Source: Anaerolineales bacterium UBA4823 (GTDB taxonomy: Bacteria; Chloroflexota; Anaerolineae; Anaerolineales; UBA4823). From it: 36,236 bases of DNA. The notes below the pieces were generated by a model. The model was not told where the DNA came from and ran no database searches. It saw only the letters and a program-made list of their open reading frames with translations. The position numbers and the translations under genes were made by a program. This document shows, piece after piece, positions 6,356 through 23,170 of this stretch; within the stretch, counting starts at the first letter, position 1, and each line of letters opens with the position of its first letter. The DNA is taken from contig DHFN01000025.1 in NCBI GenBank assembly GCA_002402275.1, positions 1 to 36,236 on the forward strand, given 5' to 3'.

Positions 6356-6361
6356 TATTCT

Positions 6362-7335: not shown

Positions 7336-7414
7336 TAAACGTTCTATTGTGACCTTCGTTCCCTAGGTGTTTAATCTATTTTTTCATTATAGCCATTGAT
7401 TTTAATGTTTAAAC

Positions 7415-7444: not shown

Positions 7445-7466
7445 TTGGGTATTAATTTTTGTTTCT

Positions 7467-8189
7467 TTACTTATTATAAAACCAATTGTAGGCGTAGTAG
7501 CCGGTTCTACCTACACTCTGGATCCGAACGGCAATTTGACCTTTGCCTTGTAAACCAGCAGGTATTTGAACTTTGATTGTTTTTGTGCCACCTTTGCCAG
7601 TGTTGAATGTACCAACGATTTTGCCATTAACTCCCAGTGTCCCAATTTTCCCTAATAAAACCTTATATTTATCATTCGCAGGTAAATTGGTAATTTTGAG
7701 GGTTACGGTTTTATTCTTAACCACACTCGTTGCATAGATATAGGGATATCCATAATACCCGTCACCATAGGAATACGCCCCACCAGTTCCCGTATACTTT
7801 TTATTATTGTAGAACCAGTTATACGCATAGTATCCTGATCCGCTGGTACTTTGTAATCGTATGGCGATTTGATACTGACCTTTGAGAGCTTTTGGAATAG
7901 AAAAAGTAACCTTGAATGAACCACCTGCACCACTATTTATAGTGTCCACTACAATCCCATTGACCCCGTGTGTACCAATATAGTTCATCATAACCTTAAA
8001 GGTATCATGCGCAGGAAAATTGTAAGTCTTGATTGTAACGGTTTTGTCAGTGGAAACGCTCACAATCGAAAAAGTTGGGTAACCAGAGTATGCCACAGCT
8101 GGTTTTACACCAATACCACTAAAAGTAGATCCCAACAATAATCCCACCAATAAGATAGAAGACAAAACAATCATTAAGCTGCGTTTCAT
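7467..8189 (-). CDS. Secreted protein of unknown function built from two 94-aa internal repeats
   Basis: Signal-peptide-like N-terminus (MKRSLMIVLSSILLVGLLLG) and SD AAGGAG upstream. Residues 36-129 and 147-240 align at roughly half identity, and both end in GYYAYNWFYN(N/K). A Gly/Tyr-rich linker joins them. Confidence 0.7.
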   Translation of the reverse strand: MKRSLMIVLSSILLVGLLLGSTFSGIGVKPAVAYSGYPTFSIVSVSTDKTVTIKTYNFPAHDTFKVMMNYIGTHGVNGIVVDTINSGAGGSFKVTFSIPKALKGQYQIAIRLQSTSGSGYYAYNWFYNNKKYTGTGGAYSYGDGYYGYPYIYATSVVKNKTVTLKITNLPANDKYKVLLGKIGTLGVNGKIVGTFNTGKGGTKTIKVQIPAGLQGKGQIAVRIQSVGRTGYYAYNWFYNK

Positions 8190-8423
8190 TTTTTTTTCTC
8201 CTTTTTATAAAAACAGCTAGTTTTATCCACAAATTATCCCATGACCGGCAATCCTTTGCCATTGAGGACAAAATTAATGGATTTGGTTTTTATATATTAT
8301 CGGCAGAAGGCGCTATAATTTATTATATACACGTTTAATTTACATTAAAATCATGAAAAAAGCAAGCGTTTTAGCAATATCGTTACAGTAATGTAAGGAA
8401 TTTTAAATTTAGGAGCAAATTTC

Positions 8424-9047
8424 ATGAGTGTTCTTACTCACTTTCAATTATATGATTTACTTAACCGCCAAAAACCATTATGGCTAGTAAAAATAGATTT
8501 ATCTGATCTGTCATTAATATCCATTGATTTATCCTCCTGTAATTTATCCTATGCAAATTTAAGCCGTTCGGATCTAAATTGGGCAAATTTCTTTCGCTGT
8601 AATTTGACTAAAGTTAATTTATCCTTATCGAATCTGTATGAAGCTAATTTAAGCGAGGCAATCTTAGAAGGCGCAAATTTGACTCATTGTAACTTCACCC
8701 GGGCTAATCTATCTAAAGCAAATTTAGTTGATGCTAACCTTGTTGAGGCAAATTTATCTCGTGCAATATTAACCAAAGCAACCCTAACCAACGCTAATCT
8801 AAACCTAGCCAATTTATCCCGAATAGATTTGAGTAAATCTGATTGTTCAAATTCAAATTTTAGCTTTGCTGACCTCTATAAAGCCAATCTCTTCGAGGCA
8901 AATCTTACCAATGCCGATCTCCACGATGCAAACCTAACCGGAGCGGATTTAACCGCAGCAAACCTGACTGGGGCAATTTTAACCAATGCAATCCTAACGA
9001 ATGCCGATCTTACCGATGCAATACTACCAGAATCAATGATAAAATAA
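8424..9047 (+). CDS. Pentapeptide-repeat protein
   Basis: Almost the whole 207-aa protein is A(N/D)Lxx pentapeptides (ANLSR, ANLTH, ADLTD and similar). SD AGGAG lies upstream. Confidence 0.85.
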   Translation: MSVLTHFQLYDLLNRQKPLWLVKIDLSDLSLISIDLSSCNLSYANLSRSDLNWANFFRCNLTKVNLSLSNLYEANLSEAILEGANLTHCNFTRANLSKANLVDANLVEANLSRAILTKATLTNANLNLANLSRIDLSKSDCSNSNFSFADLYKANLFEANLTNADLHDANLTGADLTAANLTGAILTNAILTNADLTDAILPESMIK

Positions 9048-9119
9048 AACATTATTTCAAAAAACAACCCTTTTCCTCTGTGAGCCCTACCTAAAAATTC
9101 CAGAAATCGGAGGTAATAA

Positions 9120-10628
9120 ATGAACCAATTCATCGCCGCGATTGATCAAGGAACCACCAGTACTCGGTGTATCCTCTTTGATCACAATGCATCCATTCTA
9201 GCAAATGCCCAAAAAGAACATCATCAATTTTATCCTCAAGCTGGGTGGGTAGAACATGACCCTTTGGAAATTTGGGAACGTACCCAGGAGGTCATCCGGG
9301 GAATGCAACAAACTAGCAATATCAATACCCGGGATATTGCAGCCATTGGAATCACTAACCAAAGAGAAACCACTCTCCTTTGGAATCCTAAAACTGGAAA
9401 ACCCTATTACAACGCCATAGTTTGGCAGGATACTCGAACGAAGGCAATTTGCGATGATTTAGAAAAAGAGGGAGGACAAGATCGTTTTCGCAGGCAGGTT
9501 GGTCTACCCTTAGCGACTTATTTTTCAGCCCCAAAAATAAAATGGCTTTTGGACAATCAACCACAACTAAGAAATGAAGCCAAAAATGGGAATGTCTTCT
9601 TTGGGAACATTGACACCTGGCTGATTTGGTGGTTATCGGGAGGACTTAATGGTGGAATTCATGTTACCGATGTTACCAATGCGAGTCGAACCATGTTGAT
9701 GAACTTAGAAACTCTGGATTGGGATGAAGAAATTATGCGCATTTTCGACATTCCGCGAAATATCCTTCCCCATATTGTTCCCTCCAGTCCAACGATGCCT
9801 TATGCCTTCACAACCAAAGATGGTCCGTTTTCAGCTGAAATTCCTATCGCCGGTGTTCTGGGAGACCAACAAGCTGCGTTAGTTGGACAAACATGTTTCG
9901 ATATCGGAGAAGCAAAAAACACTTATGGCACAGGATGTTTTATGCTCCTCAATACGGGGCAAAACGTTATTCAGTCCCAAAAAGGTCTGCTTACAACTGT
10001 AGCTTATCAGTTTGGGAATCAACCGGTAAATTATGCTTTAGAAGGCTCGGTAGCGATCACTGGCGCGCTGGTACAATGGTTACGGGATAATCTTGGTTTA
10101 ATCTCCAAATCACAAGAAATTGAAACTCTAGCACGAACCGTGGACGACAATGGGGGAATATACTTCGTGCCAGCCTTTTCCGGTCTGTTTGCCCCTTATT
10201 GGCGAGCAGATGCGCGGGGTGTGATCGTTGGTCTTTCCCGTTTTATCAATAAAGGTCATATTGCTCGGGCAGCTCTCGAAGCCACTGCTTTTCAAACCAA
10301 AGAAATTTTGGAGGCGATGCAGCTAGATTCAGGAGTAAATCTCAAGTCCTTAAAAGTAGATGGCGGGATGGTGGTCAATGAATTACTAATGCAATTTCAA
10401 GCGGATATTTTAGGCGTTCCAGTAATTCGTCCAACGATTACCGAAACGACTGCCTTAGGCGCCGCATTTGCAGCTGGATTATCAGTTCATTTCTGGGATA
10501 ATTTAGATGAATTACGCAAACACTGGAAAACCGAAAAAATTTGGCTTCCCCAGATGAGTGCGGAAGAACGCTCATGCCAATATACTCATTGGTTGAAAGC
10601 TGTCGAACGTAGTTTCAATTGGGTATAA
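9120..10628 (+). CDS. glpK: Glycerol kinase
   Basis: N-terminal [28 protein letters not shown] and GTGCF motifs of FGGY-family glycerol kinases. 502 aa. SD GGAGG lies upstream. Confidence 0.9.
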
Positions 10629-10640
10629 AATCTTTCAGTA

Positions 10641-12023
10641 ATGACCTCGGAAACAAGCCTTAACCCGAATATAAAATGGTTTGTGTTGGTTTCTATCGGA
10701 GTCGGAACATTTATGACTGCTCTGGATATCAGCATTATCAATACTATCCTTCCGATTGTAACCAAAGCATTCCAGGCTCCCGTCAATCAAACCGAATGGA
10801 TCTCCTTGATTTATTTATTACTGGTCAGTGGATTACTCCCTAGTTTCGGCCGATTAGGAGATCTAAAAGGTCACAAGAACATTTATCTGATTGGATTTTC
10901 CCTTTTCATTTTGGGATCACTTTTATGTGCTTTATCTCCGGCGATTTATTTTCTGATCTTGTCACGTAGCCTTCAGGCAATTGGGGCTGCAATGCTTTCT
11001 TCAAACTCGCCGGCAATCCTCACAAAGAACTTTCCTTCCACCCAACGTGGTCAGGCATTAGGGCTCCAGGCAACCATGACTTATCTAGGGTTAACAGTTG
11101 GCCCAATTTTAGGAGGATGGTTAACTGAGCTCTATGGCTGGCGAAGTGTTTTTACTATCAATATTCCAGTAGGAATAATTGCTTTTTTGTTGAGCTTATA
11201 TTTAATTCCCAATGAAAAACCACATCCCGAAGAAATCAGGTTTGATTATCAGGGTGCAGTTTTTTTCCTTGGAGGTTTTACATCGTTACTACTGGGTTTA
11301 AGTATGGCTTCGGAATGGGGTTGGTTGTCCGTTCCAACAATAATTACTTTAGCACTAGCAATTATATTGCTTGGCATTTTTATCTGGACAGAAAAAAGCA
11401 GTCAGTCTCCTATGTTAGATTTACACCTCTTCTCCCAACCAGGGATTTCCCATTCCATTTTTGCTGCCGTGCTAAATTATATGTGCGTTTATAGCAACTT
11501 ATTTCTCATGCCTTTTTATTTACTTCAAGGCCGGGGTTTGGTACCCTCAAAAGCCGGGTTAATTATTTCCATTCAACCTCTAATCATGTCAATCATCGCT
11601 CCCGTAAGTGGGTCATTGTCAGATAAAATTGGCACCAAATTACCAGCATTTCTGGGGATGCTTGGATTAGCCGTTGGGACAATCTTGCTATCCACAATCA
11701 ACGACACCACATCTATCTGGTTAATCCTCACTTATTTGGCAATTTCAGGATTGGGAATTGGCTGTTTTCTTCCTCCAAACAGCAGCGCAATCATGGGTTC
11801 TGCTCCGTTAAATCAAACCGGAATCGCAGCTGGGTTACTCGCCACAGCCCGTAACGTAGGCATGGTCTTGGGAATTGGTATCTCAGGTGCAGTATTTACC
11901 ACAACCTTAACAAAACATCATTCGGCTATTTCCGGGATCTTTTCAGCTGTCCAGGCTGGATTTTTAACAGCCTTTGTAATCTCTATCCTCGGTGTCTTAG
12001 TTACTGGCTTTGGGAAAAGCTAA
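10641..12023 (+). CDS. MFS transporter, DHA2/EmrB-like (about 14 TM segments)
   Basis: Highly hydrophobic 460-aa protein with the MFS loop motif GRLGDLKGHK and the TALDISIINTILP N-terminal pattern typical of DHA2 drug:H+ antiporters. It starts 12 nt after glpK. Confidence 0.8.
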   Translation: MTSETSLNPNIKWFVLVSIGVGTFMTALDISIINTILPIVTKAFQAPVNQTEWISLIYLLLVSGLLPSFGRLGDLKGHKNIYLIGFSLFILGSLLCALSPAIYFLILSRSLQAIGAAMLSSNSPAILTKNFPSTQRGQALGLQATMTYLGLTVGPILGGWLTELYGWRSVFTINIPVGIIAFLLSLYLIPNEKPHPEEIRFDYQGAVFFLGGFTSLLLGLSMASEWGWLSVPTIITLALAIILLGIFIWTEKSSQSPMLDLHLFSQPGISHSIFAAVLNYMCVYSNLFLMPFYLLQGRGLVPSKAGLIISIQPLIMSIIAPVSGSLSDKIGTKLPAFLGMLGLAVGTILLSTINDTTSIWLILTYLAISGLGIGCFLPPNSSAIMGSAPLNQTGIAAGLLATARNVGMVLGIGISGAVFTTTLTKHHSAISGIFSAVQAGFLTAFVISILGVLVTGFGKS

Positions 12024-12029
12024 TTTTTT
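12018..12029. repeat. Left copy of the target-site duplication (AGCTAATTTTTT)
   Basis: Identical 12-mer at 19718-19729. It abuts the left terminal inverted repeat and contains the MFS stop codon (TAA 12021-12023). Confidence 0.75.
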
Positions 12030-12040
12030 AGCCACCATAC
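12030..12040 (+). repeat. Left terminal inverted repeat of the insertion (AGCCACCATAC)
   Basis: Exact reverse complement is present at 19707-19717, and a same-orientation copy at 19071-19081. Confidence 0.75.
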
Positions 12041-12164
12041 GCTTTTGATGTTCAGTCTGGTAAAGAGGATCATTGCCCATAGGTAATGGTGATCTCAAAG
12101 TGATGACTGTCCCGCCGTAGCCAAGTGAAACCATTTTGATCTGTACTACTATCCCGGAATACAT

Positions 12165-12425
12165 GTGCATCCGTGTGTCAAGCACTACGCAGGGGTAAGG
12201 GAGATCGCTGAAATGACCAGCAATATCCCTCACCCTTACGAAGAAGGTGTGGCTGAATTATGGATCAACAGCTATGCAGAAGCCTTTAGCCGTATTGAAT
12301 CGCTTCAGCTTGCCATCACCTTAGGCAAATCCAACCAGCTTATTGGTGCCATCGGTCTGAGCTTCGATTCACAAAACCGTTCTGCGGAACTTGGCTATTG
12401 GATTGGTGTTCCCCACTGGGATGGG
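12165..12425 (+). pseudogene. GNAT (RimJ/RimL-type) N-acetyltransferase fragment, 3'-truncated
   Basis: IPHPYEEGVAELWI....LAITLGKSNQLIGAIGLSFDSQNRSAELGYWIGVPHW matches the N-terminal two-thirds of Acetyltransf_3-type GNATs. The expected WGKGyatEA continuation is absent in all three frames after about 12425. The remainder of the 186-aa ORF is low-complexity read-through. Confidence 0.55.
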
Positions 12426-12620
12426 CCGTCTCCTAATGAAACCACTGCGCGGTTCAAGCCAGCATACGGTCCAGTAATCGTCAGTGTGGATAAAATGCTC
12501 TTATTTATATATTTAACCTCCTTCACAAACCTCTCCCTCTTTCCTGGCAGGAAAGAACGAAGGGATTCAATCAGGTCGGGGGAAGGAGAGGCGCGGTACA
12601 CAAAGTTCCTGGTCTATTTT

Positions 12621-12908
12621 CTAGGGCGACGAGTGATTTTTCAGGACGAGAGGAAGGAAGATACGATACTCAAACTCTCCGCACCAGTAGCCCAAGCAGC
12701 CCTTATAGTTAGTGCTGGCGGATGAGCCGATAGTTGTCTGCCCTATGGTAAAGTTGACCGCGTACTGAGCCGAGCTGGCTTGTCCCCCTCCCCCACCAGT
12801 CAATGGAACGAACCAGTCGAGATGGTAGTGGTCGGAAGACACCGCCTGGGCACTAGCGTTCAGCAGGAGCAAGACCGCTAGGGCTAAGAGTAACGCTATC
12901 CGTTTCAT
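12621..12908 (-). CDS. Small secreted protein of unknown function (95 aa)
   Basis: Signal peptide MKRIALLLALAVLLLLNASAQA. Three S-x-x-Y-containing units (SSDHYHLDW, SSAQYAVNFTIGQ, STNYKGCLGYW). C-terminal YRIFLPLVLKN. Starts 15 nt downstream of the 316-aa gene. Confidence 0.6.
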   Translation of the reverse strand: MKRIALLLALAVLLLLNASAQAVSSDHYHLDWFVPLTGGGGGQASSAQYAVNFTIGQTTIGSSASTNYKGCLGYWCGEFEYRIFLPLVLKNHSSP

Positions 12909-12922
12909 AGTGCGTCTCCTTC

Positions 12923-13873
12923 CTAGTAAGTGGTCTGCACGGTCAAGCGCACCCCGCCGATCGTGACATAGTCGCTATCGTTGTTAAAGAATAAACCAAG
13001 CCGAAGCGTGATGATACCCTGGCTCTGCGAGAGGGTGTTCAGTGCGCTGTCTGTTGCTAGATCGTAATTGGTAGCCGTGTTGTCCTGTTGGTTTGTGGTG
13101 TCATCAAACAGACTCACGAAGGAATCTGCGTCGGTTTGCTTGTACAGTTCCGTCTCACTAATATAGGCGTTGGCGCCATCCTGGCACTTGTAGTAAACCC
13201 TAATCCAAGTCACCCGTACCGGTTGTCCGTAAAGCACGGCGGGAATTGTGATCGGAAGCCGGATGTGCCTGGTACCCACAGTAGCGGATCCGGCATAGAA
13301 ATTAGTTGATCCCCCCGATGAGGTCCACCTAGTCGAATCATCGCTGGTGTTCTTGACGAACTCAGCGCTGGGGACAAAAACGTACGACGTGTCACCCTTG
13401 ATCACCGCCCCAGGATACACGGTGATAGCGTAAGGGACCGGATTGATCGGCTGGCGCGGCGTCATCTCTGGGTCATCGCCTACCTTGACGCCCAGGTAAA
13501 GTTGCTGACCGGTGATCGCCTGGTTCCAACAGAGCATGTTGATCATAAATAGTCCATTGGACACACTTACCGTACCATCGTAGCTACAAACCGCCGTCCC
13601 ACCGCTGAGTGCATCGTAAATATTTGCTACAATGGGGTAGTCACCGTTTAGCATATTTCCAGCGGCGTCGGTTAGCCGGCCTTGAATGGGTACATAGCTG
13701 AGCGTTGTCACTGCCGGACCGGTTTCCTCTTCCACGCTTGTCCCCCCCGCTCCAGCCTCTTGCCCGACTTCACCTTCCGGCGGCTGCGGCTCCTGTGCAA
13801 GACTCAGCCCCGCTGCCAGGGCGATGCCTAACAGCGTAACTAAAATGCTGATAAAAAACAATTGTCGTTTCAT
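12923..13873 (-). CDS. Secreted protein of unknown function (316 aa)
   Basis: Signal peptide (MKRQLFFISILVTLLGIALAAGLSLAQ) followed by an acidic/Gly-rich linker. The IQGRLTDAAGNMLNGDY....SNGLF....LYLGVKVGDDPEMTPRQPI..VPYA pattern is seen in uncharacterised secreted proteins. Strong SD GGAGG upstream. Confidence 0.65.
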   Translation of the reverse strand: MKRQLFFISILVTLLGIALAAGLSLAQEPQPPEGEVGQEAGAGGTSVEEETGPAVTTLSYVPIQGRLTDAAGNMLNGDYPIVANIYDALSGGTAVCSYDGTVSVSNGLFMINMLCWNQAITGQQLYLGVKVGDDPEMTPRQPINPVPYAITVYPGAVIKGDTSYVFVPSAEFVKNTSDDSTRWTSSGGSTNFYAGSATVGTRHIRLPITIPAVLYGQPVRVTWIRVYYKCQDGANAYISETELYKQTDADSFVSLFDDTTNQQDNTATNYDLATDSALNTLSQSQGIITLRLGLFFNNDSDYVTIGGVRLTVQTTY

Positions 13874-13969
13874 TTTTTACCTCCATATTGGGATTGTGGA
13901 TAAAATAGTCTTGATCTCTCCGCGGATAGTTGTCAGTCACCTTGACTCGTTAAACAGGATAACTCACTG

Positions 13970-14013
13970 ATGTCAATGACTGGTCACAAGTTTGTCGCAG
14001 TTTTGTCGCAATT
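13970..14013 (+). promoter_or_regulatory. Array of four 11-bp phased direct repeats (core TGTC; best units TTGTCGCAGTT, TTGTCGCAATT) upstream of the secreted-protein genes
   Basis: Units start at 13970, 13981, 13992 and 14003: ATGTCAATGAC, TGGTCACAAGT, TTGTCGCAGTT, TTGTCGCAATT. Read on the minus strand, the first unit overlaps a TTGACA -35-like hexamer (13971-13976) that faces the 12923-13873 gene. The arrangement resembles OmpR/PhoB-type boxes. Confidence 0.45.
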
Positions 14014-14123
14014 TACCGCTGGATTGTTGACAATGGATTTAAACACGGATATTCCAGGGGCGACTGGGGGTAGGTTTGGATTCCAGCCTTATGATTTTTC
14101 CGAAACTAATCCTTTAACCGCCC

Positions 14124-14831
14124 TTATCCCGGCTTCAAACGATAGCCAATCCCCTCCAATTTTTCGATCTGGATTCCTAGCTCCCCTAGCTTATTGTGAA
14201 GGCAACGGATAGCCTCATCAACAGTACCCTCGCCGTAGGCGTCTTCAGCTAATTCCATGATCTCCAAAAGATACATTCGGCCGAAAACCCTGCCCGGGTT
14301 GCGCAGCAGCAAACATAACAGGTCGAATTCAAGTGCGGTTAGCTCGACCGGTTTTCCGGCGATAGTCACCTGGCGCTGGCTGGGGTTCAGGGAAAGGTCG
14401 TGGTAAGCTAAGCAACGGGTGTGTTTTTTCCGGTCGGCGGAAACGATGCGCCGTACCCGTTCCACACGCCGTAGATGGGCACGTACCCGCGCTTCCAGCT
14501 CGCTGATTTTAAAGGGCTTGGTGATGGTCTCATCAGCGATCAAGCCCAGGGTGGTCATCTGGTCACTGTCCGGATCAAGCCTCCAGCTCTGAGAGGTAAA
14601 CATCAACACCGGGGTGGCTGATATCTGACGCAGGCGGTGCAGCACTTCCCTGCTATCCAATACGGGGATCACCCAATCAAGCAAGATCAAATCGGGCTGA
14701 TATTGAACGTATAGGTGCAAAGCGGACTGCCCGTCACTGGCATGGAAAACTCGATAGCCATACTTTTCCAGCCCTTGCACGATGAGCTGGGCTAGGGCAG
14801 CCTCATCTTCAACCAACAAGATCGTGGTCAT
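14124..14831 (-). CDS. OmpR/PhoB-family response regulator, divergent paralog (RR2)
   Basis: Receiver domain (ILLVEDE, DLILLDW, TKPF) plus a winged-helix C-terminus ending GIGYRLKPG. Relative to RR1 it has an insertion in the receiver (SWRLDPDSDQMTT) and a recognition-helix region with fewer basic residues (GTVDEAIRCLHNKL against RSVDNTILRLRKKL). Confidence 0.8.
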   Translation of the reverse strand: MTTILLVEDEAALAQLIVQGLEKYGYRVFHASDGQSALHLYVQYQPDLILLDWVIPVLDSREVLHRLRQISATPVLMFTSQSWRLDPDSDQMTTLGLIADETITKPFKISELEARVRAHLRRVERVRRIVSADRKKHTRCLAYHDLSLNPSQRQVTIAGKPVELTALEFDLLCLLLRNPGRVFGRMYLLEIMELAEDAYGEGTVDEAIRCLHNKLGELGIQIEKLEGIGYRLKPG

Positions 14832-14854
14832 CTCAAGAGAAGCATAACCGACGC

Positions 14855-14898
14855 CTGTCGGAAATCTGCCTCAGGATTGTCGCAGATTTGTCACAGAT
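14855..14898 (+). promoter_or_regulatory. Second array of four 11-bp phased direct repeats of the same motif, spanning the HK stop and the HK-RR2 spacer
   Basis: Units start at 14855, 14866, 14877 and 14888: CTGTCGGAAAT, CTGCCTCAGGA, TTGTCGCAGAT, TTGTCACAGAT. The array lies 24-67 nt upstream of the RR2 start codon (14831). The last 8 codons of the HK ORF are encoded by the repeats. Confidence 0.45.
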
Positions 14899-17800
14899 TT
14901 GGAGGCTGGTAGAGTTACCGTAAAGCAACTGCCCTCGCCAAGAGTGCTTTCTACTGTGGCTGTACCCCCCATCGCCTCGGTCAATTCCCTTACCAATGCC
15001 AGACCTAACCCGGCACCTCCTCCTGCCTGGCTCTGACCACGATAGAAACGTTCCCAAATGTAGGGAAGATCGGCAGGCGCAATACCTTCGCCGGTATCTT
15101 GCACAGCAATGGTTACCGTCTCCGGCTGGCAGTGCAGGCTGACGATCACGATCCCGCCTGGTAGCGTGTGCCGCACTGCGTTGTGTAGCAAGTTCATCAA
15201 CACCTGTAGCAGACGCTGCTCATCAGCTACAATGAAGATCTCATCCTGGCTAGTCTTCAGCAACAATTCCACTTTTCCTTGTTGCCAAGCTGGGGCAGCA
15301 AAAGTCTCTACCGCTCTGCGGGCTAAACTGACTAGGTCTAGCGGTTTAGGGGAAAGCGACAGGTGATCCACTTCGAGACGGGAAAGGGTGAACAGGTCAT
15401 CGAGCAAAGTTTGTAGGCGATCCAGCTCCTGGGAGATGACTTCCAACCGGTTGATCTGCGACTGCCCAGGTTGGCTACCTTCAAGTGCGGAATCCAGGTG
15501 GGCGCGCACGGTCGCCACCGGGGTGCGTAGATCGTGCGAGATAGAAGCCACTAGTTGACGGCGGGATTCGAGCAACGCAGCGATGCGGTCGCGCTCACCT
15601 TGTACCGCCCAGATGGTTTGCTTTATATGGCGCCGCTCTAGTTCCCTAACACGGTAACGCCAGGCAGCGGCGACAATTGCGGCTCCCATAAGAGCATACA
15701 AGCTATAAGCCCACCACGTTCGCCAGGGTGGGGGGGTGATAGTAACTTTGAGTGCAGTGCCGGATTCGTTCCATACCCCATCGTTATTAGAGCCTTTGAC
15801 CCGAAAGATATACGTGCCCGCCGGTAGATTAGCGTACGAGGCAAACCGCCGATTACTATCTACGACGATCCAATCCCGGTCGAAACCTTCTAGCATATAA
15901 GCGTATTGATTCTTGCTGGGGATGGTGTAATCCAGGGCGGCAAACTCAAATGAAAAAACGTAATCAATGTATGAGAGGGTGATCTCTTCGGTTTCACCAA
16001 TGGATTTCGTTAGTGGCAAGTCTTCTCCGATGGCAACTGGCTGGTTGAATATCTGGAAACCAGTCAGGATCACCGGTGGTAGGTGGGGATTATCTACAAT
16101 TTTAGCTGGGTTGAACACATTGAAGCCGTTGACGCCACCGAAGAACAACTCGCCTTTTGGGTTTTGATCGCATGCACCTCGATTGAATTCGTTGCTTTGC
16201 AAGCCATCACGCACATCGTAGTTCTTTACATTCGCAGTGCGCGGGTCGAATCTCGTAATCCCCTTACCTGAGCTGATCCATAGGAAACCAGAAGCATCTG
16301 CTAAGATACACCCGATGGCATCATTCGCCAATCCATCTTTTTCGGTGAAACTGGTAAAGGTTCCTGTCCCCCGGTCGAAGCGATTTAACCCATCATCGGT
16401 GCCGATCCAAAGGACTCCAGCAGAGTCTTCTTGGATTGCCGCAGCAGCATTGGAACTGAGGGAATTTGGATTGGTTGGGTTGTTACGATAATGCACAAAG
16501 TCTTGGGTTTGAGGGTCGAAGCGGTCTAACCCCTGGGTAGTGCCAACCCACAGGGTCTTGTTGTGGTCTTCATAGATTGCCAGGATGAAATCGCTGCTCA
16601 GACTAGCGAGGTCGTTAGGGTCGTGACGGTAGTGCGTGAAACGCTTGCTCTCCCGGTCAAAGAGGTTCAATCCACCACCCATCGTTCCTACCCAAAACGC
16701 GCCGTTCGAATCCTCCAAGATAGCCCAAACTTTGTTATTGCTCAAACTGGCTGGGTCGTCAGGGTCGTTGCAGTAGGTGGTGAAGCTCCCCGTTTCCCGG
16801 TCAAGGCGGCTCAATCCACCCTCGTAGCTCCCCACCCATAGCTCACCGCCTGAATCCTCATAAATGACCAGCACTGCTGTGGAGGGCAGGCTGGAAGGGT
16901 CCTCAGGGCTCTGTCGGTAATGGATGAACTGCCCGGTCTGGCGGTCAAGCAGGTCTAACCCGCCTTCTGGTCCGCTGGTGCCCACCCACACTCCGCCGGT
17001 TGCATCTTCGCGGATAGCCCAGATGGTGTTGCTGCCAAGACTGGTTTGATTCTCTGGATCGTTGCGATAGCGTTCGAAACGGCGCATCTTACGATCCAGC
17101 TTGTTCAGCCCAGCTACGGAAGTACCGATCCAAAGCACCCCCGATTCATCTGCGTACAATGCGGTGATGGTGTCAAAGCTCAAACTACCTAGGTCGCGCG
17201 GGTCGTTGAAATAATGGACAAACCTTACGCTTTGGCTAGCTTGCTCGCCATTTTGAGTATATTCGTTCAACCCGTTGGAAGTGCCTACCCACAATATACC
17301 CGAGGCGTCTTCGAATATAGCGGTGACTTCGTTAGAACTCAGGCTGGAAGAGTTTTTTGGGTCATTCAAGAAACGGGTAAAATCCTGTCGGAAGGGATGG
17401 AGCACGTTCAACCCGCCATTGGTGCCCACCCATAGTGTCCCGTTTTGATTAACGAAGAGCGCATTTACTTCATCATTGCTCAAGCTGCCAGCGTCGGAAG
17501 GATTATGGCGGTAATGGATAAACCGTCCTGTAACGGGATCGAACTGATTTAACCCTCCTCCCTTAGTGGCAATCCACAACCGGCTCGCTCTATCCTCACT
17601 AATAGCACTAACCGTATCACTGCTCAGGCTGGATGGATCATCAGGATTATGCTGAAATTGAAGGAATTTTCCAGTACCCTGGTCGAGCCGATTCAATCCA
17701 CCACCATCTGTGCCAACCCAGATATTCCCACCTGCACTTATATAAACAGAAGTGACAGTATCATGGCTTAAGCTGGTCGGATCCTCGGGGTCGTGGCGAT

Positions 17801-18176
17801 ATTGGGTGAACAATTCAGTGAGGCGGTCGAAGCGGTTTAACCCTCCACCATCCGTACCTATCCATAGGTTACCCGAGGAGTCCTCGGTAATCGCACGGAT
17901 GGTGTTGGCACTCAGGCTGTGGAGATCGCCTGGATCACGTTTATAGATAGTAAAGGTATAACCATCGTACTTGTTCAGACCATCTTCGGTGCCAAACCAC
18001 ATCAAACCGCGGCTGTCTTGGAATATACAATAGATAGTGATTTGAGACAAACCTTGTTCGATTGAAATTCGTTCGAAAGAAGGAGCGGATTCCTGAGCTA
18101 GCACTGGCGAGGTAAGGAAAAATGCCAGGCTAATAATCAAAAAAAATGACCTAATCAATGCTCTATTAGATATCAA
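14871..18176 (-). CDS. Sensor histidine kinase with a large extracytoplasmic double beta-propeller (Reg_prop repeats) and a Y_Y_Y domain
   Basis: N-terminal signal/anchor. About 14 repeats of the pattern D..G.LW(I/V)GT..GLN.(F/L)D....F..Y. Y_Y_Y-like YAYMLEGFDRDW....GTYIFRVKGSNNDGVW. One TM segment. H-box SISHDLRTP, N-box LLHNAVRHT, G1 DTGEGI, G2 GGAGLGLALV. The TTG start directly abuts the RR1 stop. Confidence 0.85.
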   Translation of the reverse strand: MISNRALIRSFFLIISLAFFLTSPVLAQESAPSFERISIEQGLSQITIYCIFQDSRGLMWFGTEDGLNKYDGYTFTIYKRDPGDLHSLSANTIRAITEDSSGNLWIGTDGGGLNRFDRLTELFTQYRHDPEDPTSLSHDTVTSVYISAGGNIWVGTDGGGLNRLDQGTGKFLQFQHNPDDPSSLSSDTVSAISEDRASRLWIATKGGGLNQFDPVTGRFIHYRHNPSDAGSLSNDEVNALFVNQNGTLWVGTNGGLNVLHPFRQDFTRFLNDPKNSSSLSSNEVTAIFEDASGILWVGTSNGLNEYTQNGEQASQSVRFVHYFNDPRDLGSLSFDTITALYADESGVLWIGTSVAGLNKLDRKMRRFERYRNDPENQTSLGSNTIWAIREDATGGVWVGTSGPEGGLDLLDRQTGQFIHYRQSPEDPSSLPSTAVLVIYEDSGGELWVGSYEGGLSRLDRETGSFTTYCNDPDDPASLSNNKVWAILEDSNGAFWVGTMGGGLNLFDRESKRFTHYRHDPNDLASLSSDFILAIYEDHNKTLWVGTTQGLDRFDPQTQDFVHYRNNPTNPNSLSSNAAAAIQEDSAGVLWIGTDDGLNRFDRGTGTFTSFTEKDGLANDAIGCILADASGFLWISSGKGITRFDPRTANVKNYDVRDGLQSNEFNRGACDQNPKGELFFGGVNGFNVFNPAKIVDNPHLPPVILTGFQIFNQPVAIGEDLPLTKSIGETEEITLSYIDYVFSFEFAALDYTIPSKNQYAYMLEGFDRDWIVVDSNRRFASYANLPAGTYIFRVKGSNNDGVWNESGTALKVTITPPPWRTWWAYSLYALMGAAIVAAAWRYRVRELERRHIKQTIWAVQGERDRIAALLESRRQLVASISHDLRTPVATVRAHLDSALEGSQPGQSQINRLEVISQELDRLQTLLDDLFTLSRLEVDHLSLSPKPLDLVSLARRAVETFAAPAWQQGKVELLLKTSQDEIFIVADEQRLLQVLMNLLHNAVRHTLPGGIVIVSLHCQPETVTIAVQDTGEGIAPADLPYIWERFYRGQSQAGGGAGLGLALVRELTEAMGGTATVESTLGEGSCFTVTLPASKSVTNLRQS

Positions 18177-18881
18177 TCAAGAACCCCTATCTCTGTGTAG
18201 ACGGTATCCAATGCCCCATACTGTCTCGATAATGTCGCCCATTTCGTTTAATTTCTTACGCAAGCGCAGAATCGTGTTATCCACCGAACGGCTGCCCTCG
18301 ATATATTGTTCTCCCCAGACAGTTTCCAACAGGTAAGTGCGGCTGAAGGTCCGCCCCGGGTTGCGCAGTAGCAGATATAGCAGATCAAATTCGATAGGCG
18401 TCAGATTAACCGCCTGATCCCTCATGGTTGCCTGATGCTGATCAGCGTCCAGAATCAAACTCTGATAAGAGAGACATTGCCTGGGCTGTCCCCGATCAGC
18501 GTTAACAATCTGTTGAACACGCTCCACCCGGCGAAGCAGCGCCCGCACCCGGGCGACTAGCTCACGCAGGCTGAAAGGCTTGGTGAGGTAATCGTCTGCG
18601 CCGAGTTCAAGGCCAATAACTCGGTCAGCTTCTTCAGAACGGGAGGTGAGCATCAACACCGGGATGGACGAAGTCTGACGCAGGCGGCGTAGTACTTCCA
18701 ATCCGTCCAACGCAGGGATCATCCAGTCGAGCAGTATCAAATCGGGTTTGACCTGCTCGCACAGGATCAGGGCGGTTAATCCATCGCCGGCGTGATGTAC
18801 CTGGTAGTGATTATTTTCCAACTCCTGGATAATCACTTGGGCGAGTTTGATCTCATCTTCGACTAAAAGGATCGTTGTCAT
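18177..18881 (-). CDS. OmpR/PhoB-family response regulator (RR1, canonical)
   Basis: ILLVEDE, DLILLDWMIPALDG, LTSRS and GADDYLTKPF in the receiver. Winged helix RSVDNTILRLRKKL....VWGIGYRL. Confidence 0.85.
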   Translation of the reverse strand: MTTILLVEDEIKLAQVIIQELENNHYQVHHAGDGLTALILCEQVKPDLILLDWMIPALDGLEVLRRLRQTSSIPVLMLTSRSEEADRVIGLELGADDYLTKPFSLRELVARVRALLRRVERVQQIVNADRGQPRQCLSYQSLILDADQHQATMRDQAVNLTPIEFDLLYLLLRNPGRTFSRTYLLETVWGEQYIEGSRSVDNTILRLRKKLNEMGDIIETVWGIGYRLHRDRGS

Positions 18882-19092
18882 TATTTATAAGGTAACACAT
18901 AAATCATGTATATGTCAAATATTTGGTGTATCAAACAACTTTGTTAAGGAAGAAGTGCGGGTGACTCTTTAGCAAGAGAACAAAAAGAGATAAAATGGCT
19001 TAGAAGTGACGCGGAAACAATTGAGTGAAAGGGTTGGAAGCGCTGAGATTGAGTAAGGCAATGAAGGTCTAGCCACCATACAGTTTAGTAAT

Positions 19093-19632
19093 TCATTGGT
19101 AATAACAAAAGATGATTTGGCAAGGTTGTGAATTAATCAATAATCGTTCAATGAAACATAAGCCAATCGGTAAAAAGTTTCTAACATAGCCTAACATTGC
19201 CAATTGAACTTCCAGCGTACTGTGACCTTTTACATGTTTGACCTATGTCCAAGCTATCGGAATAGCCCGCTTACGGTATGCTAAACTAACCATCAATAAT
19301 TGATGTGTATACTCAATCTTGGTTCCATCCACTATCAACCTTGTCTACTGCAAGTTCTTGGCTTGCTGTTTTAGCCATTCATTTGCAATTGGTTCATACA
19401 AACCGTGTACATCACTTGCTGGATTAGACAGCAAACGATTATTCTGTTGAACAGCGTAAAGCAATTTTGCCTCCCCAGGTATCTTCCTCGCTATCCTGCT
19501 CATCTAAACCAAACGGCTTTTGTATATTCCTACAATCAACCTAGCCAAGTATGAAATACGAGTTTTTCTTTCCACTTTTTTCAGTTGTCGAATCCACATT
19601 TTCCAGGTATTATATAGTTGGTTGATCGGCAT
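19093..19632 (-). pseudogene. DDE transposase pseudogene (IS4-superfamily-like N-terminal part), with three in-frame TAG codons and no frameshift
   Basis: Hand translation from ATG 19632, preceded by SD AAGGAG: MPINQLYNTWKMWIRQLKKVERKTRISYLARLIVGIYKSRLV*MSRIARKIPGEAKLLYAVQQNNRLLSNPASDVHGLYEPIANEWLKQQAKNLQ*TRLIVDGTKIEYTHQLLMVSLAYRKRAIPIAWT*VKHVKGHSTLEVQLAMLGYVRNFLPIGLCFIERLLINSQPCQIIFCYYQ*. The stops are at 19504-19506, 19345-19347 and 19243-19245. The L.RLI.GI..S....S.IA..IPG.AK and L.(I/V)DGT patterns recall IS4-type transposases. Only about 179 codons remain, so the C-terminal catalytic half is missing. Confidence 0.6.
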
Positions 19633-19647
19633 AACATTCTCCTTCTT

Positions 19648-19675
19648 TTGTTTTTACAAACTTCAAAGGTACAAT
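19648..19675 (+). promoter_or_regulatory. Candidate outward-facing promoter inside the IS right end, pointing at the degV-like operon
   Basis: TTGTTT (19648-19653), a 16-nt spacer, then TACAAT (19670-19675). Sigma70-like match only; there is no experimental support. Confidence 0.3.
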
Positions 19676-19706
19676 TTTTGTGCCGACCAACATTTTCTTT
19701 AAAAAT

Positions 19707-19717
19707 GTATGGTGGCT
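19707..19717 (-). repeat. Right terminal inverted repeat of the insertion (GTATGGTGGCT, the reverse complement of AGCCACCATAC)
   Basis: Exact reverse complement of 12030-12040. It is immediately followed by the right TSD copy. Confidence 0.75.
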
Positions 19718-19729
19718 AGCTAATTTTTT
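19718..19729. repeat. Right copy of the target-site duplication (AGCTAATTTTTT)
   Basis: Identical to 12018-12029. It is followed by TATTAAAAGGATTGAAATTATG, which is the SD and start of the degV-like gene. Confidence 0.75.
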
Positions 19730-19748
19730 TATTAAAAGGATTGAAATT

Positions 19749-20606
19749 ATGGTTAGGATAATTACTGATACTACATCTGTATTGCCCCAGGAAATTGCCA
19801 AGAAATACCGCATTCCGGTCATCCCTCAAATTATTCATTTTGATGATGAGACTTACTTGGAAGGAATAGAAATTGACAATGCCACTTTTTTGAGGAAATT
19901 AAAAAGTTCCAAAAATCTCCCAAAAACATCCGCACCTCCTCCTGAATTATTTGCCCAGGAATTTCAAAAAACGACCGATCCCAATGAAGCAATAATTTGT
20001 ATTCATCCTTCTATAGAAGTGAGCGGTACCATTCGATCGGCTACAATTGCTGCTCGAGATTTTTCCTATTTAGATATCCGCATCATTGATACTAAGGTGG
20101 TCGCAAGTCCGCTGGCAACGATGGTAACCCTGGCTGCGCAATGGGCTCAAGAAGGTTTATCAGCGGATGTTATTATAGACAATCTAAATCAATTAATCCA
20201 AGACTGCCATTTATATTTTTTGGTGGATACCTTAGAATATATGGCAAAAGGAGGACGGATAGGGAATGCATCTGCATTGCTTGGAAGTGTCTTGCAAATC
20301 AAACCGATTCTCATGTTCAAGAATGGACAAGTAGATGTATTTGAAAAAGAAAGAACCCATAAGCGGGCTCTGGAAAGATTAGAGAATATCGTTGTCGAAC
20401 AGATCCCTAAGAACCGTGAGGCATATCTTTCCTTAATGCATGCAGATATCCCGGATAAAATCAAAGAATTTGCTGATCGTTTATCGGAATCCCTTTCTAT
20501 CCCATCCATCCCCATATTTGAAATACCTCCAGCAATTATCACCCATGCTGGTCCGGGAGTTCTTGGAGTAGGATTTTTCACTCCGCCTTTTAGCGACAGT
20601 AAATGA
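19749..20606 (+). CDS. DegV-family (fatty-acid-binding) protein
   Basis: MVRIITDTTSVLPQEIAKKYRIPVIPQIIHFDDETYLEG and later YMAKGGRIGNASALLGSVLQIKPIL are typical DegV patterns. ATG 19749 has SD AAAGGA 8 nt upstream. The ORF-track start at 19680 lies inside the IS remnant. Confidence 0.85.
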   Translation: MVRIITDTTSVLPQEIAKKYRIPVIPQIIHFDDETYLEGIEIDNATFLRKLKSSKNLPKTSAPPPELFAQEFQKTTDPNEAIICIHPSIEVSGTIRSATIAARDFSYLDIRIIDTKVVASPLATMVTLAAQWAQEGLSADVIIDNLNQLIQDCHLYFLVDTLEYMAKGGRIGNASALLGSVLQIKPILMFKNGQVDVFEKERTHKRALERLENIVVEQIPKNREAYLSLMHADIPDKIKEFADRLSESLSIPSIPIFEIPPAIITHAGPGVLGVGFFTPPFSDSK

Positions 20607-23170
20607 GTTTAGATTCCTTACTCGAGCGCTGGCAAGCTGACCAGTCAATCCGAGAAAATATTGTATTTTGGGAGAAAACGCCCGCCCGCCCCGCAGTAAA
20701 ATGCCCTTTTCCTGCTGAAATTTCCCCTTCTTTACAACATGTCCTCAGAAGTCAAGGAATTCCGCAACTCTATCAGCATCAAGCTAACGCTTACAAATTA
20801 ATAAACAATGGCGAGAACCTTCTGATTACTAGTGGAACAGCAAGCGGAAAATCATTATGTTATAACCTCCCGGTCATTAATGATCTTATTCAGCATCCAA
20901 ATAATTGTGCATTCTATTTATTTCCGACCAAAGCACTTGCACACGATCAAGCTCTAAAGTTAAAAGAATTATTGCACTTTATCCCGGAATTTAACAGAAA
21001 ACACCCTCAAGAATCCGATGCGTTAATTGGAATGTACGATGGAGATACCCCTCCAACTCAGCGGCAATTCATTCGCCAAAACGCCCAACTGATTTTCACC
21101 AATCCAGATATGCTTCATTTTGGTATTCTTCCCAACCACCCTCAGTGGGATAGGGTCTTATCAAATTTACGTTTCATAATCATTGATGAGATTCATGTTT
21201 ATCGAGGGGTTTTTGGTTCTCATATCGCCAATGTCATTCGTAGATTAAAAAGGCTAATTGAGTATTATGGGGGGAACGTAAACTTTATTCTGACTTCTGG
21301 CACAATCTCCAACCCTTATGCGTTTGCAACAAAACTCATCGAAGAACCTATCACTTTATTGGATGAAGATGCTTCGCCTAAAGGAGAAAAAAACCTCATA
21401 TTCTATAATCCCCCCATTATCCAGGCAGAATTTGGGCTGCGGGCACATCCTTTTCGGGAAGCAAAAAAATTAATGGATGATCTCCTTAAAAACTGCTCTC
21501 AATCAATTGTCTTCTGCACAAGTCATAGATCCGTTGAACGTTTATTAATCGAGCTCCGCCAAGTCTATGATTCAGAGCTAGAGGGGAGTTTTAGTCAAAT
21601 TCAAGGTTATCGGAGCAGCTACTTACCAGAACATAGGCGGCAGATAGAACAAGATTTAAAATCAAATAAGATAAAAACTGTCGTTGCAACCAACGCTCTT
21701 GAACTCGGCATTGATATTGGCGAACTAGAAGCGGTCCTCTTGATTGGTTTTCCGGGTAGTATTGCCTCAACCTGGCAACAAATCAGCCGGGCAGGCAGAA
21801 AGAACCAGACTTCTCTAGGTATCCTCATCCTGACATCCGATCCATTAGACCAATACCTTGCCCGAAATCCCCAATACTTTCTCGAAAGCTCCCCTGAACA
21901 ACCATTGATTAATCCGGATAACCCATTAATCCTTCTCAATCACTTGCGTTGCGCAATGGCAGAATTACCATTTCAAGAGCATGAAAACTTTGGAAAAGCG
22001 AACCAACCCTTAGTTGAGGCTTTGTTCACTGCGATTTTGAATTACAAAGAAGCAATCTATGAAACCGGCAGCTATTATTATATTTCCCCAACTGCACCCC
22101 AAAATTTCTCCTTGCGTAGCAGCAGTTTCTCGAATATTCAACTCATCGTTGAACATGAAAACTCATTAAACCGAATTGGTTATATTGATCGAAATAGTGC
22201 TGACCGATTAGTCCATCCAGGTGCGATCTATCTTCATGAAGGGGAAACCTATCGTGTGATGGAGTTAGACCTTGATAATAACACAGCGAAATTATCACCA
22301 ACAAATGTCGAATATCTTACTAACCCCCATCAAGAAAGCACGATAGATGACCTTACCGCTTTATCCACGCGACACTTCCGATATTCAGAAGGAGAAAGTT
22401 TTCGATTAGGTTACGGAGATGTGACTGTAAACATGCAAGTGACAGGGTACTCAAAAGTGGATTGGGATTCGCATCAGGTTATTGAAAGAATTCCCCTGGC
22501 TCTTCCTCCTCAAACGTTAGCCACTAAAGCCTTTTGGATCAGTATCGGGGAACAACTAGTTAATGACCTTCGCTCCCAAGGGCTCTGGTCAGCTGAACCT
22601 AACAAATATGGAACAGGGTGGGAACACCAAAAAAACCTTGCCCGAGCGAGAGATGGATACCGTTGCCAAATTTGTGAAGTACCCGAGACAGATCACGCGC
22701 ATGATGTCCATCATAAGATTCCTTTCCGGCTCTTTGAGGATTCAGAAGAAGCGAATCGGCTCGAGAATCTGATTACTCTTTGTCGAAATTGTCACCAAAA
22801 AGTAGAAAGTAACCTACGCATCCAAAGCGGCTTAGCTGGATTAGGGTATGCTTTGAGCCATATTGCACCATTATTTGTGATGTGTGACCGAAATGATCTC
22901 GGGCTTCATGTTGACCCAAATTCTAGATGGGAAAACCGATTACCAACCATTTTGATCTATGAGAATATTGCTGGTGGAATAGGATTAAGCCAACGAATCT
23001 TTGAAATCGCATTAGAATTATTACACTCGGTTTATCACCATATCGCCCAATGTCCTTGTCCAGATGGCTGCCCTTCTTGTACGGGAGCAGTGAGTGAAAA
23101 TGGGATTAGCGGAAAAGCCGAAGCGTTGATTTTACTGGAAAAAATAATTAACTATGAACAACCTTTCTGA
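20603..23170 (+). CDS. mrfA: MrfA/YprA-family DEAD/DEAH-box (DEIH) helicase with a C-terminal DUF1998 zinc domain and an inserted HNH nuclease motif
   Basis: LYQHQANAY, Walker A TSGTASGKS, FPTKALAHDQ, TNPDMLH, IIIDEIHVYRGVFGSHIANVIRRL, ATNALELGIDIG and QQISRAGR match the YprA/MrfA pattern. DUF1998 cysteines are CPCPDGCPSC (23051-23080). The HNH motif RCQICEV....HHKIPF....NLITLCRNCH lies at about 22664-22795. The start overlaps the degV stop (ATGA). Confidence 0.85.
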   Translation: MSLDSLLERWQADQSIRENIVFWEKTPARPAVKCPFPAEISPSLQHVLRSQGIPQLYQHQANAYKLINNGENLLITSGTASGKSLCYNLPVINDLIQHPNNCAFYLFPTKALAHDQALKLKELLHFIPEFNRKHPQESDALIGMYDGDTPPTQRQFIRQNAQLIFTNPDMLHFGILPNHPQWDRVLSNLRFIIIDEIHVYRGVFGSHIANVIRRLKRLIEYYGGNVNFILTSGTISNPYAFATKLIEEPITLLDEDASPKGEKNLIFYNPPIIQAEFGLRAHPFREAKKLMDDLLKNCSQSIVFCTSHRSVERLLIELRQVYDSELEGSFSQIQGYRSSYLPEHRRQIEQDLKSNKIKTVVATNALELGIDIGELEAVLLIGFPGSIASTWQQISRAGRKNQTSLGILILTSDPLDQYLARNPQYFLESSPEQPLINPDNPLILLNHLRCAMAELPFQEHENFGKANQPLVEALFTAILNYKEAIYETGSYYYISPTAPQNFSLRSSSFSNIQLIVEHENSLNRIGYIDRNSADRLVHPGAIYLHEGETYRVMELDLDNNTAKLSPTNVEYLTNPHQESTIDDLTALSTRHFRYSEGESFRLGYGDVTVNMQVTGYSKVDWDSHQVIERIPLALPPQTLATKAFWISIGEQLVNDLRSQGLWSAEPNKYGTGWEHQKNLARARDGYRCQICEVPETDHAHDVHHKIPFRLFEDSEEANRLENLITLCRNCHQKVESNLRIQSGLAGLGYALSHIAPLFVMCDRNDLGLHVDPNSRWENRLPTILIYENIAGGIGLSQRIFEIALELLHSVYHHIAQCPCPDGCPSCTGAVSENGISGKAEALILLEKIINYEQPF

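Follow-up and report, generated by a model that had tools for sequence, protein, structure and literature searches.

Units of the MIC231 type consist of IS4-family inverted repeats arranged around passenger genes; they are accompanied by a target duplication of about 10 bp, lack a functional transposase of their own and are mobilized by a related insertion sequence (IS). Transposons carrying two-component systems are represented by Tn1546 with VanRS and by the copRS and silRS metal-resistance units. The IS231-MIC231 mobile insertion cassettes, also termed 'transporter IS', belong to the IS4 family and were described from the Bacillus cereus group (PMC2266710). On the sensory side, ReeS from Clostridium perfringens is a classical propeller plus Y_Y_Y kinase which regulates secreted sialidases and is an orphan kinase (PMC3762733). 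Here, a 36,236-nucleotide (nt) stretch of Anaerolineales bacterium UBA4823 (GenBank assembly GCA_002402275.1, contig DHFN01000025.1, positions 1 to 36,236; hereafter the window) was analysed, in which positions 12029-19718 are a non-autonomous IS4-family transposon of 7,690 bp. This element, for which the names transporter-IS, mobile-insertion-cassette-like unit and one-sided composite would also fit, encodes on its minus strand the response regulator RR1, a 1101-amino-acid (aa) sensor histidine kinase (HK), a second response regulator, RR2, and two secreted proteins of 316 and 95 aa. With a probability of roughly 0.8, the IS4-type unit brought this foreign sensor cassette into the gap between two housekeeping genes, one encoding an MFS transporter and the other a DegV protein, where the sensor would govern the expression of the adjacent secreted proteins.

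The limits of the element are defined by the 12-mer TAGCCACCATAC, which is present three times in the window (12029, plus strand; 19070, plus; 19707, minus) against an expectation of 0.10. Its outer copies form inverted termini (12029-12040, plus, and 19707-19718, minus) with 12/12 identity in the core and about 33 alignable nt. The left terminal inverted repeat (12029-12065, plus strand) is a solo IS end and aligns with both other IS ends over about 33 nt. Directly abutting this repeat lies the 10-bp sequence GCTAATTTTT (12019-12028), which includes the stop codon TAA of the MFS gene (12021-12023), and the same 10 bp recur behind the right terminus at 19719-19728, 20 bp upstream of the DegV start codon. 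Since these perfect direct repeats abut the outer termini, they are read as a target-site duplication; for IS4-family elements, such duplications measure about 10 bp (PMC2266710). On its right side, the element ends in a decayed IS4-family insertion sequence (19070-19718, minus strand), whose inner (19070-19081) and outer (19707-19718) ends lie on arms that are 94% complementary. Its transposase remnant comprises the N-terminal ~170 codons in a single minus-strand frame with three in-frame stops and matches the NCBIfam model transpos_IS4_2 (E = 8.7e-9, positions 2-116 of 340). A metagenome scan with the IS terminus returned chiefly chance matches and three loci with genuine full-length relatives; judged against the ~1.19-kb full-length relatives L116, L083 and L024 (L numbers denote the contigs and loci used for comparison), which come from metagenome contigs, the copy in the window lacks about 540 bp, among them the catalytic core. 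Terminal inverted repeats, a duplication of about 10 bp and an unoccupied site in a related genome are all found, as in the IS4 family, and only an N-terminal remnant is left of the single-reading-frame DDE transposase with its YREK motif. Hence, the unit is a non-autonomous derivative and not an active IS. An earlier note made from the sequence alone (the original prediction) had proposed that the sensory genes sit inside a transposon-like element, and the termini, the 10-bp duplication, the IS4 transposase pseudogene and the empty site in the relative L019 (see below) bear this out.

The inner IS end at 19070 is without a duplication of its own, the sequence to its left being GCAATGAAGGTC; it was therefore via the outer ends that the duplication arose. 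Insertion, termini, target duplication and empty site can be read directly from the DNA; from these, we infer that the entire unit moved in a single transposition via its two outer ends, i.e. the solo IS end at 12029 and the far end of the IS at 19718. The unit entered the 25-bp spacer that separates the MFS and DegV genes under duplication of GCTAATTTTT, and the IS has since lost its transposase through three nonsense mutations and the ~540-bp deletion. Duplications outside the outer ends together with a third, inner IS end could also be accounted for by a two-step origin, in which a simple IS first inserted at GCTAATTTTT, making the duplication, and a foreign circle carrying a homologous IS copy and the cargo later integrated by homologous recombination within the IS; of the resulting IS-cargo-IS arrangement, deletion would have left only the outer end of the left IS, while its right counterpart would have decayed. 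That deletions did occur is seen in the rearranged left part of the cargo, where a GNAT gene is truncated at both ends and a leader is severed at ~12420. Such a course of events, however, requires more steps, including the deletion of a whole IS sparing only the ~35-nt terminal repeat, and no trace of IS body sequence was found beyond 12065, which makes this origin an improbable one.

The unoccupied target site is provided by L019, the nearest relative found (~70% nt identity, helicase 69% identical, G+C 0.409). Positions 6193-9116 of L019 are collinear with 9104-12017 of the window, and positions 9141-21633 with 19743-32241; the MFS and DegV genes of L019 are 24 bp apart, with the cargo absent between them, and L019 therefore displays the site before insertion. 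Removing 12029-19728 from the window leaves an MFS-DegV spacer of 25 bp versus the 24 bp in L019. A search of genome contigs with the MFS protein gave a single match (31%, Acinetobacter) and no close species representative. As L019 keeps the synteny of the flanks without the cargo, a common descent of cargo and flanks from the same relatives in conserved synteny, which the original prediction had named as the finding that would speak against it, was not encountered. The opposite polarity, an ancestral block that L019 has lost by deletion, could draw on the fact that window and L019 differ by other insertions or deletions as well (GNAT and FdhD genes are present only in L019). An ancestral block, however, would be expected to share the composition of the host, while the G+C content at third codon positions (GC3) of the block lies at least 7 standard deviations (sd) above that of host genes. 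Moreover, a deletion in L019 would leave neither a duplicated target nor inverted termini in the window, and excising the unit restores a spacer of L019-like length. Loss from L019 is thus considered highly implausible.

In 1-kb windows, G+C amounts to 0.50-0.54 over ~12000-18500 as compared to 0.35-0.46 in the rest of the window. The five island genes on the minus strand display GC values of 0.517-0.549 and GC3 values of 0.55-0.67, while the 23 flanking genes range from 0.36 to 0.45 and from 0.30 to 0.42 (GC3 mean 0.358, sd 0.028), respectively; the two GC3 ranges are disjoint (Mann-Whitney p = 2e-5). Between island and host, the tetranucleotide L1 distance is 0.417 (z = 14.7), equally sized pieces of host DNA giving 0.137 ± 0.019, and the tetranucleotide correlation is 0.24 between island and host versus 0.95 between left and right flank. 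The right compositional edge lies at 18882, where G+C falls from 0.55 via 0.38 to 0.33 in 100-nt steps. On the left, a GNAT (Acetyltransf_3) pseudogene fragment (12085-12420, plus strand; profile positions 23-92 of 138, E = 1.4e-7), which is truncated at both ends and contains an in-frame stop, has a GC of 0.50 and a GC3 of 0.52; it is therefore counted among the foreign DNA, and a left edge at 12426 is only approximate. The original prediction of a compositionally foreign interval at 12426-18881 is hence confirmed by GC3 and by tetranucleotide statistics, and AT-rich DNA does resume at 18882, directly past the RR1 start; what required correction was the left edge and the extent of the unit, as the element spans 12029-19718. 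A derivation of the GNAT fragment from a host GNAT gene, as present in L019 but missing at the syntenic site of the window, was also considered and rejected, since it shows no similarity to the host-type GNAT of L019.

As the source is a metagenome or enrichment run, and the Logan assembly made independently from it is interrupted within the 316-aa gene (~13229-13242), the G+C-rich block might be suspected to be a chimera assembled from the reads of two organisms. Both compositional junctions, however, are crossed by independent Logan contigs, of which L001 is identical to the window and L018 differs at 2 of 12,602 bases (99.98% identity); an origin of the island by chimeric assembly is thus excluded. 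In addition, inverted IS termini and the perfect duplication of 10 bp are situated at the junctions, features that chimeric joins do not make, so that this explanation can be set aside with near certainty. At the break inside the 316-aa gene, the two Logan contigs overlap by only 14 nt; the break and the two L018 mismatches could stem from variation between strains or from another, related copy present in the sample. No tRNA genes or Rfam families were found in the window, which makes a tRNA-targeting integrative element unlikely, and domain searches of all open reading frames of the window revealed no integrase, relaxase or phage genes.

With regard to the origin of the cargo, the best named homologues of the flanks belong to Anaerolineales, and homologues of the cargo are located on contigs with a G+C of 0.48-0.63, those with a name being Chloroflexota/Anaerolineae. 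These affinities point to a transfer within the phylum, from a higher-G+C Chloroflexota lineage into a low-G+C (~0.41) Anaerolineales; the DNA between the ends would accordingly represent captured higher-G+C Chloroflexota DNA with the GNAT fragment and five intact co-directional genes. The expectation that the closest cargo homologues come from a different lineage than those of the flanks thus holds as far as higher-G+C contigs and other gene contexts are concerned, but not at the level of the phylum, which is still Chloroflexota. RR1 and the kinase are nearest to L016 and L012 (67-68% nt identity), and the 316/95-aa pair is nearest to L007 and L010 (72% nt identity), where it occurs in a different gene context. 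No donor genome is present in the databases, and for the stretches 12040-12640 and 18860-19075 none of the homologous loci yielded a counterpart. In L012 (positions 8400-22432), a 12.5-kb cassette encoding RR, HK and proteins of 797, 507, 388, 98 and 797 aa is located between an intact tag gene (3-methyladenine glycosylase) and a disrupted second copy thereof; over 423 nt, these copies are 90-96% identical to each other, and the cassette has a G+C of 0.506 versus 0.57 and 0.60 in its flanks. This arrangement is a second, independent sign of mobility, by a different mechanism.

The sensor histidine kinase (14871-18176, minus strand) consists of a signal sequence or first transmembrane segment (TM1), 14 Reg_prop blades making up two propellers, a Y_Y_Y domain, a second transmembrane segment, HisKA and HATPase_c. 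Ten Reg_prop matches pass the Pfam thresholds, and 14 W[IV]GT blade motifs are present. Its gene starts with TTG, the recorded gene call being 12 codons shorter, and its H-box reads SHDLRTP. The protein ends shortly after HATPase_c (residue ~1092 of 1101) and lacks both a receiver and a DNA-binding domain. Its residues 29-819 can be aligned from end to end with the periplasmic domain (residues 27-787) of PDB entry 4A2L (E = 1.5e-130), which we take to be the sensor BT4663 of Bacteroides thetaiotaomicron. Within the clade of kinase orthologues, identities of 58-69% are observed, compared to at most 45% beyond it. RR1 (18177-18881, minus strand; Response_reg and Trans_reg_C) is an OmpR/PhoB-type regulator whose gene abuts that of the kinase, and in all five orthologous loci examined a 233-234-aa OmpR-type regulator with 71-76% identity to RR1 is encoded directly upstream of the kinase. 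RR2 (14124-14831, minus strand) is a divergent OmpR-type regulator, 55.6% identical to RR1, in which the acidic pocket, Asp52, Thr and Lys are kept; as read from the sequence, Asp52, Thr and Lys are present in both regulators. A HisKA plus HATPase_c kinase next to regulators composed of receiver and Trans_reg_C domains corresponds to a classical OmpR/PhoB two-component system. Phosphotransfer from the kinase to RR1 and RR2 is suggested by adjacency, which is kept in the five orthologous loci. The genes following the kinase differ between these loci, with a 797-aa beta-helix protein in L012 and L016, FG-GAP and 829-aa proteins in L017, RR2 followed by 498-aa and 107-aa proteins in L014, and RR2 followed by the 316-aa and 95-aa proteins in the window. 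Hence, the domain assignments of the original prediction (RR1, a kinase with about 14 blades in two propellers plus Y_Y_Y, RR2 and two secreted proteins) were correct, and domain searches likewise agree with its description of a classical kinase flanked by two OmpR-type paralogs. Of the five-gene synteny whose recurrence in other genomes it proposed to check, the exact combination was not found elsewhere; the RR-HK-RR-large-small layout recurs in L014.

OmpR/PhoB-type regulators bind direct repeats spaced by one helical turn. On the coding strand, tandem 11-bp direct repeats of the form TGYGACAAnnn give three matches in the window as compared to 0.05 expected. Upstream of the 316-aa gene, three tandem repeats, TGCGACAAAAC TGCGACAAACT TGTGACCAGTC, occupy 13981-14010 (minus strand), and the same motif is found in L012-L017. 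Two further tandem repeats, TGTGACAAATC TGCGACAA, lie within the 3' terminus of the kinase gene (14877-14895, minus strand), 46 nt ahead of where RR2 starts, which is equivalent to the position of the box between HK and RR2 in L014/L015. In L012/L013, L014/L015 and L016, TGYGACAAnnn repeats occur between the kinase and the next gene, and in L017 they do so twice. These repeats are therefore a probable OmpR-family response-regulator box. More specifically, they may constitute the box of RR1, through which the kinase would control the downstream genes.

The 316-aa protein (12923-13873, minus strand) is secreted and built of two beta-sandwich domains; its family, an uncharacterised one from Chloroflexota, comprises at least 528 homologues, all annotated as hypothetical. 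In its AlphaFold 2 model (predicted local distance difference test, pLDDT, 83), an N-terminal domain (58-143) is connected by a low-confidence linker to a C-terminal jelly-roll (163-313). Foldseek searches with this model gave weak matches to CBM22, SGBP-B and Cry domain III-like structures, and a PDB sequence search with the family profile gave no match. In every homologous locus, the 316-aa homologue is followed by a gene for a protein of ~93 aa. The counterpart in the window is the small secreted 95-aa protein (12621-12908, minus strand), which comprises a signal peptide, three S-x-(N)Y-x-L strands and a C-terminal FLPLVLK tail; its family contains 1,237 representative clusters, and single-sequence AlphaFold prediction reached a pLDDT of only 58, too low for use. 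Judged from their sequences, both proteins have signal-peptide-like N-termini, and they are probably secreted and envelope-associated.

The mature N-terminal ~50 residues of the 95-aa protein and its homologues weakly but reproducibly match positions 28-76 of PamT (NCBIfam NF058579; E = 1e-5 to 2e-8), and for the 95-aa protein the similarity is retained without the signal peptide (E = 1.2e-5). PamT is the tip pilin of Pam pili, whose pilins are reported only from the candidate phyla radiation (bioRxiv 10.64898/2026.03.03.709456). As in the case of PamT, a small Sec-exported beta protein is encoded beside a larger two-domain beta protein. Unlike PamT with its ~241 residues, however, the protein has only 95 aa, its score of 37.4 bits is far below the cut-off of 240 and covers only model positions 9-76 of 241, and PamA, PamB, PamC and PamD homologues were not detected. 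None of the proteins of the island matched these other Pam models, nor does the unit contain a chaperone-like gene; the locus is not a Pam pilus locus.

The C-terminal tail [YF]LPLV[LM][RK] is curated in NCBIfam as 'YLP-box putative sorting motif' (NF050076). The window protein scores 13.1 bits against a cut-off of 15, with L005 and L002 homologues at 15.0-15.8, L014 at 14.7 and L007 at 14.1; a literature search for 'YLP-box' returned no paper. Most other cassette proteins end in this tail, and every large partner that lacks it has a small YLP-box protein encoded behind it. In the slightly wider form [YF]LPL[VLA][VLM][RK], the tail is found at the end of beta-helix, FG-GAP, PD40-like, DUF5122 and ~95-aa proteins encoded beside these regulators; tail-bearing genes adjoin the cassettes in L016, L017, L002, L007, L010 and L005, and in the window the tail lies at 12621-12659.

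While domain composition and the conserved state of repeat box and gene pair are direct observations, we infer the working of the cargo as follows. The extracytoplasmic double beta-propeller/Y_Y_Y part of the kinase would bind an extracellular ligand, by analogy most likely an oligosaccharide or polymer fragment. The kinase would then autophosphorylate its HisKA histidine and pass the phosphate to RR1, possibly also to RR2. Phosphorylated RR1 would bind the TGYGACAAnnn repeats that precede RR2 and the 316/95-aa operon and activate both. The products would be a secreted, carbohydrate-binding-module-like two-domain beta-sandwich protein and its small partner, whose YLP-box tail probably serves envelope sorting or anchoring.

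Alternatively, the two-component system might not control the adjacent secreted proteins at all but merely have been captured together with them, with the repeats serving another factor or no function. The link between regulator and box is drawn from sequence, and the closest 316-aa homologues adjoin BTAD/AAA/TPR regulators instead of two-component systems. Speaking for control, the 11-bp tandem repeat is located between kinase and next gene in five orthologous loci with differing downstream genes, and two classes of propeller/Y_Y_Y kinases, OmpR-type here and HisKA_3/GerE-type in L005/L006, adjoin a pair of the 316/93 type. Mere co-capture is hence regarded as rather unlikely. The reading preferred here, an IS4-type transposition of a cassette in which the sensor regulates secreted proteins, has further points to answer besides that regulator context. 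Clear target duplications were not found for the full-length IS relatives, L116 and L024 among them. No intact transposase is encoded in the 36-kb window, and present mobility would need a copy acting in trans. The repeat box was found neither upstream of RR1 nor upstream of the 498-aa gene in L014. The structural matches of the 316-aa protein are generic beta-sandwiches (TM-score 0.2-0.34). Finally, no database locus holds all five genes together at high identity, the cargo being a mosaic whose assembly into one cassette may have preceded or followed capture. Thus, of the 'portable' or mobile cassette in the original prediction, the transposon context stands, but the element is now immobile by itself. 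Of the 'signal-to-secreted-effector' cassette, the link from sensor to secreted proteins gains support from the conserved box upstream of the cargo and from the L014 layout, while the label 'effector' is unproven.

A more far-reaching and tentative idea, to be held with considerable reserve, is that kinase and RR1 are the dedicated regulator of an undescribed class of Chloroflexota envelope proteins marked by the YLP-box tail. The tail-less 316-, 388-, 498- and 598-aa types would then be paired with the ~95-aa PamT-related protein, which would supply the tail as a separate chain, and the large-small pair could form a two-chain surface adhesin or short filament. Such a unit of sensor and cargo would circulate as a mobile module among Anaerolineae, possible signs of which are the IS4 transposon described here and the 12.5-kb cassette of L012. 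In L007 (positions 2104-13296), a 309/93-aa pair, a BTAD regulator and a 679-aa YLP-box protein are encoded between PilB-like (MshEN+T2SSE) and PilC-like (T2SSF) genes, the latter being followed by small open reading frames; this layout possibly indicates a link to a type IV filament locus, or else an insertion into one.

Among the non-coding parts of the element, the stretch 3' of the 95-aa gene (12421-12620, minus strand) carries at 12485-12502 the second copy of an 18-nt motif, whose other copy (13895-13912, 89% identity) is located about 10 nt upstream of the ribosome-binding site of the 316-aa gene. This motif, AAGA[GC][CT]ATTTTATCCACA on the minus strand, may be a shared leader or regulatory site, and the copy at 12485-12502 is probably the leader of a further gene severed at the GNAT junction. 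Upstream of RR1, an AT-rich region still within the element (18882-19069, minus strand) contains a promoter-like site at 18947-18918 on the minus strand.

Outside the element, the window contains at 393-6871 a heterodisulfide-reductase-like/MvhD/[NiFe]-hydrogenase/HycI maturation protease cluster with CCG, HdrA-like Fer4+FAD, FlpD, Oxidored_q6 and NiFeSe_Hases domains, which is conserved in L019. A 240-aa secreted protein (7467-8189, minus strand) with two internal repeats, Tyr/Gly-rich tails and a weak 'PGS Ig-like' match lies beside a 207-aa pentapeptide-repeat protein (8424-9047, plus strand), and both are conserved in L019 as well. Further small insertions or deletions distinguish the two sequences: a 188-aa GNAT gene and FdhD are present only in L019 (2924-3490 and 5419-6189), where the window has short spacers (7336-7466 and 9048-9119). 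At 20603-23170, an MrfA-type DEAD-box helicase (DEAD, Helicase_C, MZB) is interrupted at residues 688-735 by an HNH endonuclease domain, and a protein of the RNase_H_2 superfamily comes next; this architecture is common to all 120 homologues listed.

IS-borne transfer of a regulated cassette is an already known phenomenon, and the present case is a clear one of ordinary horizontal gene transfer. It is, however, an unusually complete natural example of a regulated trait moving between uncultivated Chloroflexota, with duplication, termini, dead transposase and empty site all visible. Propeller/Y_Y_Y sensors, best known from glycan sensing in Bacteroides, evidently also move as classical two-component cassettes, and with TGYGACAA at 11-bp spacing a candidate DNA box is at hand for the regulators of such kinases. 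At the same time, a large set of unstudied secreted proteins (at least 528 members for the 316-aa and 1,237 clusters for the 95-aa family), both linked to the YLP-box tail, comes into view, and the tail can now be addressed together with a defined regulator.

Compared to IS231-MIC231, the element shares IS4-type ends around passenger genes, a duplication of about 10 bp and the lack of a functional transposase inside. It differs in its Chloroflexota host, in its cargo of ~7 kb with five intact genes and a pseudogene, and in that one of its ends is a decayed IS copy with both termini instead of a bare repeat, with no trans-acting IS seen. As in Tn1546 (VanRS) and the copRS/silRS units, kinase, regulator and putative targets travel together, so that the recipient gains a self-regulated trait; unlike Tn1546, the machinery is IS4-type and not Tn3-type, the regulated genes are uncharacterised and a second paralogous regulator is present. 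With BT4663 (PDB 4A2L/4A2M), the kinase has in common a sensor of two seven-bladed propellers plus Y_Y_Y over its whole length, and the ligand is therefore probably sensed alike. In BT4663, however, kinase, receiver and AraC-type DNA-binding domain are fused and control polysaccharide-utilisation loci, whereas here a classical kinase is accompanied by separate OmpR-type regulators, and its neighbours are not glycan-degrading enzymes. Of the features of a Bacteroides-type hybrid two-component system (HTCS), the sensor is thus present and the fused receiver plus AraC-type domain is not; the kinase is therefore not an HTCS and is nearer in kind to ReeS. Like ReeS, it is a non-hybrid propeller/Y_Y_Y kinase from outside Bacteroidota with a link, here a predicted one, to secreted proteins; unlike ReeS, which has no adjacent regulator, it is encoded next to its regulator and to a candidate binding box.

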